A stretch of 64,000 nucleotides of DNA from Vermamoeba vermiformis. Lineage: Eukaryota. The stretch spans positions 1-64,000 of the forward strand of contig JBEWZL010000008.1 of the NCBI GenBank assembly GCA_045837725.1, in the 5' to 3' direction. The notes below the pieces were generated by a model. It was given only the letters and a program-made list of their open reading frames with translations. It did not search any database and was not told the origin of the DNA. The position numbers and the translations under genes were made by a program. Positions within the stretch are counted from its first letter, which is position 1; every line of letters starts with the position of its first letter. Below are positions 2,911 through 52,762 of this stretch, piece after piece.

Positions 2911-4007
2911 ACGTTGAGACAAAACATAAGTAAAGTAACGCCAAAAATCAATGAGTTTATTTGAAATCGTCACACAATCACCATTGGGAAGATCCGATCA
3001 CAAGCAGGTGGCACGTTCTGTATAACCAGTGCTGACTGGCGCCGTAATAATATGCATTGGAAATAAATAATTGACGGGCAGTCGTGGTAAATCTGTCCGT
3101 AACTCTTTTAGTAATTCGATCTTTTTTTCTGAACCGCGAGTAACGGTCACTTCCGGATTTAGAAAAAATCGACATTCGTCTGCTGGGAAAATCGACACTC
3201 GTCGAGTACCGGACAATAGTCTGTGTCGGGACATAACCCCACACGACCAGAAACGCCGTCGAAATATTTATAACAATACAACCACAAGCTGGCATAACAC
3301 GTTAGCAATTGTTGGCTTCGTAACACGAGTTGGTTGGACTTGCTAGGAAGACTCAAGTCTTCTTTGCACAGCGGATTGTTCCTGCGAACGTGCTAATTGC
3401 ATGCTCTGCCCTGCAAGTGCAGTGATCATTAGCGTCAGTAACCTTTATTAATATAATTATTTTTTAGTTTATTAATTAATATTCTTTCAGTAAAGCCGAT
3501 CAACGTTGTTTTAAATGGCGAAGTTGCCCCATTCGTGCAAGCCAAGACCATTACACCATAATCAAGAGAGCAGGTAATAGGTTTTTATCAAATTGCATTT
3601 TTTACTGTATTTAGATCGCAATACTAATTTCAGATACGACGGCAGATTTTGCGCAGACAACAAGTCTTTGGTCGGATTGCTGTATTGTTGAGCGATGCAA
3701 GTAAGGGGCTCAACAATGATGAATGATAGCACCTGGGGGGTAAGTTATTTTAATTTACTTTTTTAAATCAATTGCGCGGCATCTCACCGTTTTTGTTCTT
3801 GTAGCACTACTGGCCTGATTTTGTTGAAAGCGTGCACCTGGTGAATGTTTTCAAAGTAGATGATGCATAGCGCTGGCAGGCCCGGCTGAAGTTGGGTAAG
3901 TCTCCTCTCTCTCTGAATTTTGTGAGATTAACTAATCCGATCAGTTTCTCCTTCACAATAGCTGCGTGATTCTCACTGCCCTGCTATACCGTGACTCAGC
4001 TCGACAC

Positions 4008-4374
4008 CGTCCAGTTATTGGACAATCCCTCAGTGTGGCTCGAACCGTCCAGAAGCAGGATGCTTGTTGGTGCTTGGCTGGCACCGTTCCAATTATTGGA
4101 TGGTCCCTTCAGCTGCATGACTCGCACGTTCTACTTATGGATAGTCCTCTCGGTGCCGAGGCCTAGACGCAACACCCAAGATTTAAACGCTTCATTGGTG
4201 CAGGCTGGCACCGTTCAAGTCATGGACGCTTTGTGGGTGCGTGGCTCGTGCTGTCCAAGACCTGGACATCCCCTCGTTGCCTTGATTAACCCATCCAAGT
4301 CTTGGAAACTACATTGTTGCTTGGCTTGCACCATCCAGACTCTGTGCTTGGTTGGCCCATCCAAGTCTTGGATG
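4008..4374. repeat. Array of ~10 degenerate 17-nt CRTCC-N7-GGAYR motifs, ~40-nt period
   Basis: Motifs start at 4008, 4046, 4086, 4127, (4173), 4212, 4252, 4292, (4332) and 4358; best copy is CATCCAAGTCTTGGATG. Confidence 0.75.
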
Positions 4375-4429
4375 CTTTGTAATTGTAAAATAAACCTTAT
4401 TTTGTTGTACAAGGTGCCATTCAGGGGTA

Positions 4430-5135
4430 TGCAAAGGGTGTACAGAGCACTGTACAGGGTGTGATGGGGCATACAGCATGCTGTACGGGGGGTGCGATGG
4501 GGTGTACAGCTTGCCGTACAGGGGTGTGAAGGCACGTACAGCGTGCCGTACAGGGGTGCGAGGGTGCGTACAGCGTGCCGTACAGGGGTGCGAGGGGGTG
4601 TACAGCGTGCTGTATGGGGGTGCGAGGGGGTGTACAGCATGCTGTACGGGGGTGTGAAGGGGCATACAGCATGCCGTACAGGGGTGCGAGGGGTGTACAG
4701 TGTGCCATACGGGGTGTGAGGGGGCGTACAGTGTGCCGTACGGGGTGTACAGCGTGCTGTACAGGGGTGTGATGGGCGTACAGTGTGCTGTACGGGGGTG
4801 TACAGCGTGCCGTACAGGGGTGCGATGGGTGTACAGCACGCCGTACAGGGGTGCGAGGGGGCGTACAGCGCGCCGTACGGGGTGTACAGCGTGCTGTACG
4901 GGGGTGTGATGGGCGTACAGTGTGCTGTACGGGGGTGTACAGCGTGCCGTACAGGGGCACGATGGGTGTACAGCACGCCGTACAGGGGTGCGAGGGGGTG
5001 TACAGCGCGCCGTACGGGGGTGCGATGGGTGTACAGCGTGCCATACGGGGGTTTGAGGGGGCGTACAGTGTGCCGTATGGGGGTTCGAGAGGGTGTACAG
5101 CGTGCCGTATGGGGGTGTGAGGGGGCGTACACCAA
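4430..5135. repeat. G-rich degenerate satellite, unit ~GTACAGCGTGCCGTACAGGGGTGCGAGGGG
   Basis: About 700 bp of GTAC/GGGG-containing units with strong G/C strand asymmetry. Confidence 0.95.
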
Positions 5136-5459
5136 AGTGTATGCATGGTGATTTTTTTTTTTGTTAACAAAAATCCTAGCCCCAGCCCTAAATCCTATAT
5201 AATAGCATAGTCCCAGTGGTTGAGTGCTTGGGCACTCCCACCTGGCACTATGCTCTGCCTGTCTGTGCATTCTCAAGAGTTGAAGTGGCATCTGGCTTTA
5301 CAGTAAGTTAATTAATATTTTTACCTTGGCACTGCTTGCTGGTAGATTAGCCAGTGCTATTTAATTTACATTTGATTATTTTGTTAGCCTTGAAATTAAT
5401 TATTTTGAAAATTATTTGTTTTTCCTGGGTCAGCCACAGCTACATCCAGGCTTTTTGCG

Positions 5460-5795
5460 ACTTTGTTTTTTCAGCCCCCGGTTCCTCGTGGAACCAACCC
5501 CTTGCTAGGACATTGTTTTTTGGCAGGGTCGGTTCCTCGAGAAACCGGGGGTTTTGGACATTGTTTTTTTCCAGGGGCGGTTTCACGTGATACCGGCCCT
5601 TTTTGGACTTTGTTTTTTTTCGGTTTGCTTCTTGGACTTAGTTTTTTTCAGGGGGCGGTTTCACGTGATACCGCCCCTTGTTTGGACTTAGTTTTTTTCA
5701 AGGGGCGGTTTCACATGATACCGCCCCTTGTTGGACTTTGTTTTTTTCAAGGGTCGGTTTCACGTGATACCACCCCTTGATGGACTTAGTTTTTT
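5460..5795. repeat. Palindromic minisatellite, ~50-nt unit GGGGCGGT-TTCACGTGAT-ACCGCCCC plus GGACTT(A/T)G-T7
   Basis: Six hairpin units; four carry the TCAC(G/A)TGA core (5583, 5661, 5711, 5760), and the first two are more diverged. Confidence 0.9.
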
Positions 5796-6328
5796 TTTAA
5801 TTTCTTTAGGACTTTATATTTTTAACCTCTCTCTTAGGACTTCAATTATACCAAGCCTTCCTGGACTTTGTCTTGCAGCCTTGAACTCTACCTCCTTTGT
5901 AAACATTTGTAAATAAAACTTCTTTACATCCAGACTTTGTTTTTTAATTGGACTATAGTAGAATTACCCTTTCATCTAAAAACAAAGTGACCCATTTTAT
6001 ATTATTCTATTTAACTTGTTTGACTTAGCTATTTTGAACATGAGTTTAAATAAAAAGAATGTTCGTGAAAAAGTTCAACAAAAAACAAGTTTAAGGCCTC
6101 TTTAAACTCTATAACCTGTGGGTTTTTATAACCCAGAAGCCTACTATAGTTGCGTTTTTATTACAGTTCAGATCGTGCAAGTTCACAGCCTTCCAATACT
6201 AGGTACGTTTAATTTATAAATTATAAAAAAAATAACGATAAATAATAAGAAATATTACGATATAATTATGCCAGCATTTATTTTAAATTTTTAGTAATTT
6301 TAATTTTAATAATTTCCCGATCCTTCAG

Positions 6329-6443
6329 AGGTGTCCGTTCTGCTTCCCAAGGTTTGCAATCTAGTAGCGAATGGGTACGGACACGAACGGAACGAGATTC
6401 GGGTACACGATCCAGTTCCCAAAAACCACGTAGCAGTGAGCAA

Positions 6444-6484
<41 letters not shown>

Positions 6485-8456
6485 AGGTCGTGGTCGAGGT
6501 CGTGGTCGAGGTCGTGGTCGTGGTGGTAGTCGTGGAGGCACACATCCAGATCGTGCAAGATCTCAGGAGGACGATCAGAGACAATCAGCGAACAGGCGTG
6601 CGGAGCGCTCGTCAGAGGGCGATGATTTGGAGCAAGAATCCTCTGAGGATAAAGGCTCGCAGCGGGGCTCACCATCAAAAAGATCTCGCCCTTCAAAAAA
6701 TCAACGCGAGAAATCGAAGCAATCGAGCGTTGAAGTTGACCCTGACGCAACGCAAATAGTGACCTCACAGCCAAGCACTCGGCTGTTAGAAGTGCATGAC
6801 GGTGATGAAGAAAGTACCGATGCGCAGAATCGCATCGAGGACCAAGTGGAACTTGAGATTGACGCGGTAAGTTTCTTAGTTTCTATAATATAGATAATCT
6901 AACGGCTTGTAATAGAGTGTACCTTCAAACACAAATGTTCAGGACTCGGCAGCAGAAGCGCCCCACGAAAACGACGGTCAGGTATCGACAAAACGTAACC
7001 ACAAAAAGTTGGTAGCTAATATTTGAGCTAATAGGAAATTGAAAGAGAATCCCCAGCCGTTACCGAAAGTGCGGTACATAACCAACAAGAATCAGGACAG
7101 TCTTCTGATTCTTCACAAAAACCCCTATCTGAGGGACATGGAGATGTCTCTTCTCTGGATAATGAAGCAGGCTCTGGTGCGGAAGTTGGAACAGAAGCGC
7201 AGGATAGTCAGGTAAGCAAATAGTAGCTACGGGCAGCCCATAGCTAATATTTGGCACAGGCAAATGACGGAGGCCAGTTCGAACCTGCTTCTTCTTTGGA
7301 GATTGAAAGCGCTCAAAGACCCAGAGCCGAGCCAAACCAAAACCAGATTATTGACACCCCTGTAGTGAACGAGCCAAGCCAAAACCAGAGCGTTGATGCC
7401 CCTGTAGTGAACGCAAGCAGTCAAGCTGTGCAGGGGGTGGGAAAGGGAGACAAAGCGCCTGCTAGAAAAGTAAGTCGATTCATACAGCAATGCAGCTGTG
7501 CTAACTTTGGTGTTGAAAGAGAAAGCGTGTCATTAATGACGAAAATCTCTATGACTCAGAGAGTGATGGTAGAAGATCCTCAGCCAAGCAAAACAAGCGA
7601 CGAAAACAAGTAGGCAAAGTTAGTGAGGATGACTACCCAACGGGCAAAAAGCCAACGTCGAAAAAAAGGAAGGCCACCAAGAACAATACTAATGAGAAGC
7701 CTGCAAAAAAGGTGGGTAGCATTATAAAAACTGAATATTTCTAACGCATTCATATTTAGAGAAAGGTTAATAAAGAAAGCTCGTCATCGGAATCAGAGGA
7801 GGATCCACCCCCAATTAACTTCTCTGTTCGAAAAGCCAAGGTCTATAACCGCCCACAAACTGCTCCCTTTCAAGAGGTAGTAGAAAGAATTATGGCGAAG
7901 GACAACGTTGCTCAAGCTGAAGCTGAAGCTGAAGCCAAAAAGGCCCTGAAAAAGTTTCACGAACAACTGAGTAAGTTTTAAGTTTAAAGTTGATGTTAGC
8001 TTACAATTTTGGTGTTTAGCAATGAAGGAGATGAATATTTACAAAAACACAGAGGGTGTGTTTTTATCAAAACGCCGCTTTGCATTGATAGTCAGGGACA
8101 TCACTTACAACGCTGCAGATGAGGAGTATAGGTGGCAAAGAGGAGCCTTGGATGCATTGCAATATGCTTCTGAGGGTTTTATTTCCGATCTTTTTACTAT
8201 GGCACAGCTCGCCACCATTCATGCCCGTCGTGAAACGGTCATGGTTCGAGATATGCAATTAGTATATGAAGTGCACAATGTCGCTTCTGATGCTGTTTTG
8301 CATAACTTGAAGCATAGCCTTCAAGACTCTGCAAAAAAAGATGGAATTAAGCTTTCTACTAAGCCTGCTTCCACTGCAAAGTCAAAGCCAAAGTCCAAGT
8401 ACAGTAAAAAGGAGCTTAGAGAGCTTGTTCTTAAAGAGAAACAAGCAAAGAAATAA
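6329..8456 (+). CDS. Giant histone H3-fold protein, CenH3/CENP-A-like (>=609 aa; start codon not located)
   Basis: In-frame exons 6329-6866, 6916-6981, 7035-7211, 7260-7469, 7520-7711, 7760-7970 and 8020-8456, all with GT-AG introns. The last exon aligns to the H3 fold (MKEMNIYKNTEGVFLSKRRFALIVRDI...RWQRGALDALQYASEGFISDLF...IHARRETVMVRDMQL). (GR)n tract at ~6443-6540. Confidence 0.85.
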
Positions 8457-8559
8457 GATTTTATTTTTGAATGAATTTATTTAATAAATGTGGTTTTGTC
8501 TGATTTGGGTTGTGAGCTGTTTATCAAGTTTTTGTTGGTTTTGCCAAGCTGGTTCACAC

Positions 8560-8828
8560 CATACGAATTTCGGATGCCTATACTACCTTGGTTATTTCAG
8601 AGAACAACCCTTTCAGACCATCCGATTTTCGGACGCTCTCAAAAGCAGCTACGAAAATGTAATAGCCAATATTCAGATGTGCAAGGCATCCGAACTTAGG
8701 ATGGTCTGAAAGTGCTGTGAAATCTCTTATAAGCCTATTGAAGACCATCCGAAGTTCGGATGCCCATGTGGAAGAATATCAGCTATGAAAGTTACATAGC
8801 TGCTTTTTGACCATCCGAAGTTCGGATG
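8560..8828. repeat. Array of five 17-nt palindromes CATCCGAA-N-TTCGGATG (59-68 nt period) with nested inverted repeats
   Basis: Motifs at 8560, 8619, 8687 (inverted context), 8746 and 8812. TTTCAGACCATCC/GGATGGTCTGAAA and AAAAGCAGCTA/TAGCTGCTTTT form longer inverted pairs. Confidence 0.85.
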
Positions 8829-9033
8829 GCTGTGGGAGACGCTTTGACAAAGAATAAACTCATTTATTTTACATCATACAAGCAGGGACTCTTCACCCCT
8901 CAACCTTTAACCTTAACCCCAAAGGTATATTAATTCAGCAGAAGTCTAGGATATATCACACACCAATTCAATTTTGAAGCCATGAGTAAGAGCAACCCTG
9001 GCTGTTTTATTTACAAAACAGTAGTAAAGATTT

Positions 9034-50514: not shown

Positions 50515-52762
50515 CTAATAGCCGTAGTTAGAGGGCATGGCCGCACCATAGCTCTGAGGTGCACTAGCGTAGCCATTCGACGCGCCATTATAACCACCGT
50601 AGCCACCGGTGCGAGGAGGACCATAGCTGCCACTCTGGCCACCGTAGCCTCCGCCATAGCCGCCACGACCGCCGTAACCACCACGACCGCCATAGCCTCC
50701 GCGACCACCTCGACCTCCGCGGCCTCCTCCTTGACGGCCACCAAAGCGTTGTGGAACCATGCGCGGCAAGAAAGCGGGCACTTCTTGCTTGGCCTCTTGC
50801 AATTGTTCCATCAACTCCTTGGCGAGACCCTTGTCCTTCTCGCTGAAGTAGACGGTAGCGAGACCAGTCTTGCCTGCACGACCAGTACGACCAATGCGGT
50901 GCACGTGATCGTCAATGTTGCTTGGCAAGTCGTATTCAATCACGTGAGCGACGTCGTTGATATCGAGACCACGAGCAGCAACAGAGGTAGCGATGAGAAT
51001 GGGCACTCTTCCGCTCTTGAAGTTGCGCAGAGCAGCCTCGCGCTGATGTTGCACGTGATCGCCGTGAATGGACTCGGCAGCAAAACCATTGCGACGCAAG
51101 AAGTAGCAGACATCATCGACACCCTTCTTGGTCTCGACGAAGATGAGGGTCTTCTCTTGTTTGTACTGAGCGCGGGCCTTGAGGTCCTGCAACAAGGTGT
51201 CGTTCTTGTCGCGGTACTCAACGTGTTTGACGACTTGTTTGATGTCAGCATTGCTGCTGCCCAATCGACCGACTTGAATCATAATGTAGTCGTGCTTCAA
51301 GAAGTCCATAGCCAACTTTTGAATAGGCTTGGGGAATGTAGCGCTGAACATGATAGTTTGACGGTGTTCTTTGCGAGGGCAATCGCGTTGATCGATGATT
51401 TGACGGATCTGAGGCTCAAAACCCATGTCGAGCATGCGATCTGCTTCGTCGAGAATGACGTACTTGCAGCAAGACAGACTAAGCTTTTTGCGCTCCATCA
51501 TGTCGTTCAAACGACCAGGAGTGGCAATAATAATGTCCACACCGCGCTCAATGCTGCGTGCTTGATCACCATAAGGAGCACCGCCGTAGATGACAACGGG
51601 CTTGACACGAGTGCTCTCGGTAAACTTGAGAGCTTCTTGGTGAATTTGCGAGGCCAACTCACGAGTAGGGGCCATGATGACTGCGAGAGGGAAGCCGCAG
51701 TAGTAACGACCACGACCCGTGTCAGGACGTTGCGTGCGTGTAATGTCCACGAGCAGATTGGTGATGATGGGCAACAAGAAGCCTGCTGTTTTACCACTGC
51801 CTGTTTGTGCGGTGGCCATGACGTCTCTGCCAGACATCAAAATAGGCAGGGCATACTTTTGAATAGGAGTGGGGGCAGTGTATTTAGCTTTCTAAATTGA
51901 GGAACTAGATCAGAAATTGGACGAGAAAATGATAAGCATGTTCGAACTTACCGTAACATTGTTCTGCAAGACGACCGGCATCGCTGCATCGTCAAATCGT
52001 TGAATGGGAACACCGCGGGGAATATCAGTACCTGAATAAGAACCAGTTAGTTAACAAAAAAACGAGATTCGAGATTAGCAGATCGGCTTACCCATGACCT
52101 CAACTGTCACATTGGCGAAGACTTCAGCGGGGTTAGGTGCAGCAGCTTCTTCTCCATCGCGTGATGGACTGTAAGGGATAGCAGCCTCAACTGACTTGGG
52201 AACCTGGAGAGAGTTTACGGTTAGGGATTTTGTCTGAAAATTAATTAATTGATTTCAAATTTAAAACTATGCATATTATACAATAGTCTCCCTCAAAGCT
52301 TATCGAAATTTAAGCTTGCATAATTTTTCTCAAGGATTTAACTTCAGGCCGCAAGTCCAGATCAGCTTACTCATAATAATGACTACAGTCAAAATATCGT
52401 CTGCCAACGACTCAACAACAAGTCAACATGCGACCCGCCGGCAAGAGAGTAAGAAACTGATCCTTTGGAAGAGACACAGCGCTAAATCCTTTCTTTGAGG
52501 GAGATGATGAGATCGAAAATGTTCTAACCGATTCGCCTGAGTTGATCTTTTGTCGCTTATTAGCATGCTCTGAGTATGAAGCACGTTCGGTACTTCTGCT
52601 TCTGCTTCTCTTTCTGTCGCGACGAGGACTGCGCGATCTGGATCGCGAATCGCTCTTTCTTCTTCGGTGATGGTCTCGCGATCTGGATCTCGATCTTGAT
52701 CTTGATTTAGAACGCGAACGAGATCTGCTCTTAGAGCGGCTTCTTCTTGAACTGCGAGGCAT
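50515..52762 (-). CDS. DEAD-box RNA helicase (DDX3/Ded1-like) with N-terminal RS domain and C-terminal RGG tail
   Basis: Q motif, AQTGSGKT, PTRELA, DEAD, SAT, ARGLD and HRIGRTGR. An upstream RS-rich exon (52529-52762) splices in frame via 52091-52203. Confidence 0.9.

Follow-up and report, generated by a model that had tools for sequence, protein, structure and literature searches.

An H3-like gene beside the telomere

The stretch analysed here, hereafter the window, comprises the first 64,000 nucleotides (nt) of the forward strand of contig JBEWZL010000008.1 from Vermamoeba vermiformis (NCBI GenBank assembly GCA_045837725.1), and the subject of this study is an H3-like gene at 6329-8456 on its + strand. 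The gene is real and apparently intact, is divided into several exons and encodes a histone that is very divergent within the H3 family. Judged from its sequence, its single likeliest role would be that of the centromeric H3 (CenH3) of the source lineage, an assignment that we make tentatively, a non-centromeric variant being nearly as likely. The exons and the telomere repeat beside them are arranged as follows.

3-147: telomere repeat (CCCTAA)24 at the start of the window, about 6.2 kb from the H3-like gene
6329-6866, + strand: exon 1, with an S/R-rich start, (GR)13 and then an acidic S/E/Q region
6943-6981, + strand: exon 2, 13 codons, acidic
7035-7211, + strand: exon 3, 59 codons, acidic and S/E/Q-rich
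7260-7469, + strand: exon 4, 70 codons, with a 42-nt tandem duplication (7328-7413) through which NEPSQNQ..D.PVVN is encoded twice
7520-7711, + strand: exon 5, 64 codons, with four K/R clusters resembling nuclear localisation signals (NLS) and the motif KRRKQVGKV
7760-7970, + strand: exon 6, with acidic SSSSESEEDPPP, KAKVYNRPQT and then an Ala/Glu/Lys-rich stretch into alphaN
8020-8282, + strand: exon 7, fold part, with the end of alphaN, alpha1 (8070-8114), loop 1, alpha2 (8139-8222) and alpha3 (8244-8282)
8283-8456, + strand: exon 7, C-terminal extension, with an extra helix (8295-8339), a Lys-rich linker, a terminal helix (8406-8450) ending in QAKK, and the TAA

Spliced by script, these seven exons yield 600 uninterrupted codons, beginning at 6330 and closed by the TAA at 8454-8456. 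This confirmed the seven exons joined in frame of an earlier note on this DNA, made without database searches; its length of at least 609 amino acids (aa) did not hold, the model having 600 codons, and the rest of its description of the gene stood. The six introns measure 76, 53, 48, 50, 48 and 49 nt, each running from GT to AG with a CTAAY-like branch site, and in five of the six cases they are AT-richer than the exons (GC 0.27-0.46). With 600 open codons over six canonical introns and a Pfam domain scoring 56.4 bits, the reading frame cannot be a product of chance.

The (CCCTAA)24 repeat indicates that the start of the window is a chromosome end, in keeping with the subtelomeric position noted earlier. 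Because the first 5.3 kb, where the open reading frames (ORFs) were listed and one was scanned, yielded none with a Pfam domain, the H3-like gene would be the first protein-coding gene from the telomere. The earlier suggestion that the gene might be borne by a mobile element was not upheld: its flanks hold repeats on the one hand and, downstream, ordinary cellular genes on the other (one with a BTB domain, a fragment of G-alpha and a weak match to NUDIX), neither transposon nor viral genes were found there, and 28 pattern matches in IMG/VR viral contigs included no relative. The remaining 62 kb of the window contained no further H3 or H4 match, and an Rfam search of the whole window returned no match.

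A codon-usage model of the window preferred the proposed frame in only five of the seven exons; another frame scored marginally better in the remaining two, exons 1 and 3, both of biased composition. Two properties of the gene model count against an intact CenH3 gene. The first is GC content at third codon positions (GC3), which lies at 0.25-0.47 in every exon but the 13-codon exon 2 (0.62), as against 0.59 in eight long reference ORFs of the window. Codon usage and GC3 fit a weakly expressed, compositionally biased gene and favour no single reading.

The missing 5' end

The second such property is that the H3-like model has no in-frame ATG before residue 430, so that the true N-terminus and its 5' exon lie outside the model. 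A scan of 3001-6328 for an ATG followed, in the right phase, by a donor matching GTAAGT in at least five of six positions returned three candidates. The favoured one and a possible second exon are these.

5196-5302, + strand: candidate promoter and first coding exon, with TATA-like TATATAAT at 5196-5203, the ATG at 5250 and 17 codons plus 2 nt
6167-6202, + strand: candidate micro-exon of 36 nt, encoding SDRASSQPSNT, its phase taken from the sequence

We infer that the segment 5250-5302 is the only plausible first exon among the three, as it ends in a perfect GTAAGT donor at 5303 and its phase fits the acceptors at 6166 or 6328. Behind the candidate micro-exon lies a putative 126-nt intron (6203-6328) of 17% GC, and the combination of the micro-exon with this AT-rich intron is plausible. 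The other two candidates were rejected, one (3723-3739) as lying far upstream and the other (6268-6293) because it would leave an intron of 35 nt. An alternative 5' exon from the ATG at 6040 was discarded on account of a stop at 6103, as was a GTGGGT donor at 6118, which has no ATG in phase. Between the candidate exon at 5250-5302 and exon 1, in the putative first intron or promoter region, a 49-bp unit is repeated in tandem about 3.4 times at 5508-5796, each copy with a hairpin-like GGGGCGGTTTCACGTGATACCGCCCC that has CACGTG at its centre.

A model without a start codon, belonging to the gene nearest the telomere, behind minisatellites, and with a GC3 below that of the neighbouring genes, could also represent a decaying or untranslated subtelomeric pseudogene that has no 5' end. 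We regard this as very improbable: the 600 codons are free of stops and frameshifts, the splice signals are intact in all six introns, an intact ORF 98% identical to exon 7 stands on an independent public contig, and the fold residues that are invariant among the relatives described below are all kept. A phase-compatible upstream ATG exon, with its perfect GTAAGT donor and TATA-like box, likewise speaks against decay.

Histone fold and C-terminal extension

Exon 7 (144 aa, 8022-8453) matched the Pfam Histone family PF00125 with 56.4 bits (cut-off 26.4; E 4.5e-15). Sequence comparison with the PDB gave 60 listed matches, all of them H3 or CenH3 chains, the best being Cse4 (48.4 bits, E 9.5e-12), H3.Y (47.1), Cnp1 (44.9) and H3.3 (44.0). 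An AlphaFold2 (AF2) model built on a 109-row alignment had a mean predicted local distance difference test score (pLDDT) of 81.5, with 88-96 in the blocks of the fold, and placed helices at exon 7 residues 2-9 (the end of alphaN), 17-31, 40-67 and 75-87. When this model was compared with the PDB by Foldseek, 369 matches were obtained at E <= 0.001, every listed one being a chain of a nucleosome entry that contains H3 or CenH3. Pfam, PDB and Foldseek results together point to an H3-family fold, and none places the fold among non-histone histone-fold proteins, an outcome that the earlier note had allowed for.

The equivalents of H113, D123 and L126, which belong to the H3-H3' four-helix bundle, are all present, as is that of the DNA-contacting T118; these residues of the H3-H3 interface are retained, as had been claimed. 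Alignment with canonical H3 also bore out the replacement of Q68 by A, F84 by W and T107 by A and a loop 1 that is longer by one residue (12 residues in the I74-F84 segment vs 11 in H3), and each of the strings quoted earlier in this connection (FALIV, YRWQ, LFTMAQL, TYNAADEEY and IHARRETV..RDMQL) occurs in the spliced product.

Residues 1-110 of exon 7 modelled with H4 by ESMFold2 reached an interaction prediction score from aligned errors (ipSAE) of 0.82, the best control reaching 0.00; agreement between runs was at least 80% of contacts, with a pLDDT of 73 or more for the partner. Of 78 solved complexes, 51 attained the mark applied, as did 2 of 108 mismatched pairs. Since H3-H4 is a solved textbook pair, the predicted pairing shows likeness to H3 and not binding.

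Beyond alpha3 the chain continues for about 57-59 residues, the last 30 of which carry a net charge of +8, in agreement with the basic post-fold extension described earlier. AF2 predicted two helices in this extension, at residues 92-106 (pLDDT about 70) and 129-143 (85-89), with a disordered Lys-rich stretch between them.

The N-terminal tail

At least 456 residues precede the fold, and within these 456 there is no ARTK or ARKS motif, as the earlier note had observed. From its start the tail is S/R-rich, and there follow (GR)13, the acidic S/E/Q region, the four K/R clusters, RKQVGxV and KxK[VI][FY]. The GR tract, put earlier at about 15 units, is a perfect (GR)13 at residues 39-64, and Tandem Repeats Finder counted 15.3 copies of GGTCGT at 6444-6535. 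The acidic S/E/Q-rich region and the NLS-like clusters were likewise recovered, the former extending over about 230 residues with a net charge as low as -10 per 30 residues and the latter lying at residues 320, 347, 369 and 384. By eye, KAKVYNRPQT resembles the HRYRPGT of H3 (compared in P0007), and relatives have KSKIFQP or RVKVFQ at this place.

One relative, P0153 (287 aa), carries tail and fold in a single continuous ORF, and its tail of about 165 residues is collinear with exons 4-6 of the present gene. Aligned between the two are KERKQVGQV (P0153) and KRRKQVGKV, an acidic stretch finishing in prolines, and KSKIFQP (P0153) and KAKVYNRP. This collinearity within one ORF argues that exons 5-7 at least would encode one protein and that its disordered tail is functional.

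The same observation bears on whether the product is short. Translation might begin at Met430 in exon 6, or an internal promoter might give rise to an isoform, yielding a protein of about 171 aa, and exons 1-5 would then be a separate upstream gene or a non-translated leader. Residue 430 is the first in-frame ATG, the public ORF calls of P0001 and P0003 start at or near the corresponding MKEM, and the codon model does not rank the proposed frame best in exons 1 and 3. We nevertheless consider a short product unlikely, as 429 codons upstream of Met430 remain open in frame across five canonical short introns and the collinear tail of P0153, with the exon-5 motif RKQVGxV, lies in the ORF of the fold itself; short public ORFs, moreover, would be expected where a prokaryote-style caller meets an intron boundary.

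A clade of related H3-like proteins

A search of representative proteins returned 2898 proteins at E <= 0.001. The top match, P0001, is a 144-aa ORF and accounts for the 98% identity on an independent public contig mentioned above, and nine further clusters are 35-54% identical (P0003, P0004, P0005, P0006, P0010, P0015, P0016, P0021 and P0033). In full, the members of this clade are P0001, P0003-P0006, P0010, P0015/P0151, P0016/P0153, P0021/P0156 and P0033. Their contigs, from NCBI, ENA, Logan and JGI, are about 0.6-3 kb long, except for one JGI fragment on 6.9 kb, and when ten members were looked up, names were attached to a single cluster ('hypothetical protein' and 'histone H3/H4').

A tree was computed from 109 H3-like rows and 88 columns, leaving out P0033 as too short and fusion artefacts such as P0002 and P0007-P0020. 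In the latter, read-through within histone gene clusters has artificially joined two or three copies of canonical H3, in some cases along with pieces of H4, H2A or H1; these long, high-scoring matches are not true multi-fold proteins. Ten clade rows made up one side of a branch with a Shimodaira-Hasegawa-like approximate likelihood ratio (SH-aLRT) of 95 and a stem of 0.97, in a tree whose backbone is otherwise loose (60 of 106 inner branches open).

The clade is marked by a core MAQLA(A/T)IHARR.T, by LVY in alpha3 instead of LARRIRG, by a post-fold ..G..V...LK..L and by a basic tail, and alignments show core, LVY, post-fold helix and basic tail in the window protein as well. A C-terminal extension of at least 20 residues occurs in 11 of 11 clade rows, while one of at least 25 is found in only 6 of the 98 other H3-like matches, and seven of the 11 rows end in [AG]KK. 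The equivalents of H113, D123 and T118 are invariant in all 11 rows, that of L126 is kept in nine and replaced by F in two, and the position of T107 is A or G throughout (11/11). Loop 1 exceeds that of H3 by one to five residues in nine of ten rows. Such a clade exists, and the C-terminal extension is conserved in it; the protein studied here has an H3-family fold with a clade-specific post-fold helix and basic tail.

Further relatives were sought in several collections. Among annotated proteins, no longer relative was found at 253-2000 aa with a single-exon query or at 504-2000 aa with the family profile, which is weak evidence. A metagenome scan gave 95 pattern matches, and the two loci with a relative (L001 and L002) were both set aside as other H3-like genes, being 40-44% identical over 36-48 residues without the clade core. 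None of 94 pattern matches in GTDB genome contigs was a relative, and Protein Atlas returned generic histone clusters only (best score 0.92). No description of the clade was found in the literature on CenH3 diagnostic residues, on C-terminally extended CenH3 or on H3 variants, telomeres and H3V. As far as that literature and these database records show, the clade and its conserved C-terminal extension appear to be undescribed.

CenH3 or another H3 variant

The window protein combines A, W and A at the positions of Q68, F84 and T107 with a loop 1 one residue longer and no ARTK tail, all of them traits of the CenH3 type. Q68, F84 and T107 are said to be the diagnostic positions of CenH3 named by Malik and Henikoff in 2003. 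As cited by Drinnenberg et al., the criteria of Malik and Henikoff are a longer loop 1 and the absence of the invariant Gln, Phe and Thr (PMC4359364), and the positions are printed there as 69, 85 and 118, which makes the numbering of the third ambiguous. The changes that the earlier note had read from the sequence as the standard CenH3 diagnostics are present in the window protein itself, subject to this ambiguity; across its clade they are uneven, as detailed below.

A precedent in architecture is the CenH3 of Dictyostelium discoideum (H3v1, DDB_G0291185). Like the window protein, it has a C-terminal H3-like fold in a chain of about 600 aa (619 there) and no canonical H3 tail, its long unique N-terminal domain being described as resembling no known protein (PMC2995078). 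The two differ in loop 1, which is shorter in the Dictyostelium protein and longer than in H3 by one residue here; its fold is described as lying 'at its C-terminus', and its localisation next to the centrosome is experimental (PMC2995078), whereas a centromeric localisation of the window protein would be a prediction. An N-terminal tail much longer than most is also reported for Physarum CenH3 (PMC8600027). The 619-aa Dictyostelium protein means that a giant tail is no obstacle to the CenH3 reading, and it would be too strong to say that H3 and CenH3 normally lack such a tail (PMC2995078).

Among solved structures, the best-scoring relatives are Cse4 of Saccharomyces cerevisiae and Cnp1 of Schizosaccharomyces pombe (PDB 6qld, 7k78 and 9lrv), which resemble the window protein in their IHA(K/R)R.T core, in a lengthened loop 1 and in having W in place of F84, at about 35-39% identity in the aligned fold. 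They differ from it in alpha3, with LARRIRG in place of LVYEVHN, and in their N-terminal tails, which are far shorter (full chains of 229 and 120-126 aa). Canonical H3 (H3.1/H3.2/H3.3) likewise shares the fold, the predicted H4-handshake surface and the residues H113, D123 and L126; it is 32.6% identical over 86 residues, and the window protein departs from it by lacking an ARTK/ARKS tail, by the replacement of Q68, F84 and T107, by an N-terminal tail of at least 456 aa and by a C-terminal extension of about 57 aa.

In the proposed mechanism, the fold would pair with H4 through the usual handshake and dimerise through the retained H113/D123/L126 residues of the four-helix bundle, the variant thereby replacing H3 in a specialised nucleosome. 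The basic C-terminal tail and the long N-terminal tail would project from this particle and could bind DNA, RNA or partner proteins. Such specialisation would most likely be centromeric, in a protein built like the 619-aa Dictyostelium CenH3.

Several observations weigh against this assignment. T118 is kept in the window protein and in all clade rows, at what may be the third diagnostic position, printed ambiguously as 118 (PMC4359364). Within the clade, Q68 is kept in three of ten rows and F84 in two of ten, and loop 1 of P0004 is no longer than that of H3. The family profile scores 84.5 bits against Cnp1 and 83.0 against H3.2, and the margin for the single sequence is small as well (Cse4 48.4, H3.Y 47.1, H3.3 44.0); on these comparisons, scoring by sequence does not tell CenH3 and H3 apart. 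The clade groups in the tree with no known group, and with no known CenH3 in particular, its fold being 31-44% identical to canonical H3 as against 41.8-83% for the other 98 matches. The chains of Cse4 and Cnp1 stop only a few residues beyond alpha3, whereas the window protein carries a structured C-terminal extension, and its roughly 57-59 residues after alpha3 compare with at most 24 in 92 of the 98 H3-like matches outside the clade. Finally, in Naegleria gruberi, two paralogues of the validated CENP-A are reported to be down-regulated in mitosis or below detection, and the authors of that study infer that they may not act at the kinetochore (10.64898/2026.08.18.745565). They too are CenH3-like H3 paralogues of a protist, with genes that are short by comparison (10.64898/2026.08.18.745565), and they indicate that, besides the gene of the kinetochore histone, other H3 genes of CenH3-like type can occur in the genome of a protist, which lowers the odds of a CenH3 here.

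These points would be accommodated by a new clade of non-centromeric H3 variants, in which the window protein would be a histone specific to a stage (cyst, spore or gamete) or to a locus (telomeric or ribosomal DNA) and another gene of the same genome would encode the true CenH3. Kinetoplastid H3V, a divergent H3 enriched at telomeres and not at centromeres, may be set beside such a variant. The putative DNA, RNA or acidic-patch binding would then be supplied by the post-fold helix, the [AG]KK tail and the RG/acidic/basic N-terminal tail. CENP-C recognises the C-terminal tail of CENP-A at the nucleosome face, and it is from this face that the C-terminal tail of a non-centromeric variant would emerge. 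The C-terminal extension as a trait of the whole clade, the long stem without affinity to known CenH3, a profile equidistant from Cnp1 and H3.2, the uneven diagnostics and the two Naegleria paralogues, which are not up-regulated in mitosis (10.64898/2026.08.18.745565), all point this way. Against it stands that CenH3 has usually proved to be the H3-like gene that, among those of a surveyed genome, diverges most and combines a lengthened loop 1 with a long tail that cannot be aligned (PMC4359364), and that a giant N-terminal tail is documented for a validated CenH3, that of Dictyostelium (PMC2995078). Nor is a second CenH3 candidate known from this organism, the search for one having been confined to the window. 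We take this alternative to be a serious possibility that falls short of being probable.

The clade as a whole might be a previously undescribed class of core-histone H3 variants, conserved across several unsampled protist lineages and non-centromeric, with its own post-fold helix and [AG]KK tail, an N-terminal tail in which RG, acidic and NLS parts extend over about 460 residues, and appendages that resemble a linker histone or bind the acidic patch, the class marking a special chromatin state. In this full form the proposal is a real possibility, though less likely than not.

The choice matters because H3 variants define chromatin states and CenH3 defines centromeres. Should the gene encode the CenH3 of its lineage, it would be a second CenH3 with a giant tail and one with a conserved, structured C-terminal extension, which would make one ask how such a protein recruits the kinetochore. 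Where CenH3 has been studied in this respect, in animals and yeasts, CENP-C docks on the short C-terminal tail. Should it not be the CenH3, it would represent a new conserved class of H3 variants with appendages at its N- and C-termini. In both cases annotation at present misses the clade, which is represented only by unannotated ORF fragments on short contigs.

Other features of the window

Between the telomere repeat and the H3-like gene, 150-2500 consists of subtelomeric repeated modules. Runs of (CAT)n/(ATC)n at 183-217 and 431-469 are each followed by CCCCCTGCGGGGATTGATCCCCAG, and units of the form catttaaagca.gcgtgtaccag recur, with no evident protein-coding ORF. By eye, a small multi-exon gene is possible at 3516-3960 on the + strand, between these repeats and the minisatellite that follows, with an ATG at 3516 and short segments bounded by GT and AG. 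The minisatellite, at 4452-5131, is G-rich: its 32-bp unit recurs about 21 times with 74% matches, and higher-order periods of 53, 137 and 168 bp are superimposed. A local rise in GC to 0.51 and a strong AT skew are due to it.

Just 3' of the stop of the H3-like gene, the 17-nt palindrome CATCCGAANTTCGGATG occurs five times within 270 nt (8558-8833). It is absent elsewhere in the 64 kb, 0.02 occurrences would be expected by chance, and none of 100 shuffles reached five. The cluster could be a set of transcription-factor sites or the remnant of a small inverted-repeat element.

Farther along, at 50518-51891 on the - strand, lies an exon of 458 aa for a DEAD-box helicase like DDX3/Ded1, with an RGG-rich C-terminus. 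The best named relatives of this ORF are only 56-59% identical, in plants, fungi and oomycetes alike, as befits a poorly sampled lineage for which the protein collection holds no closely related annotated genome; two JGI metagenome proteins reach 97% and 94%.

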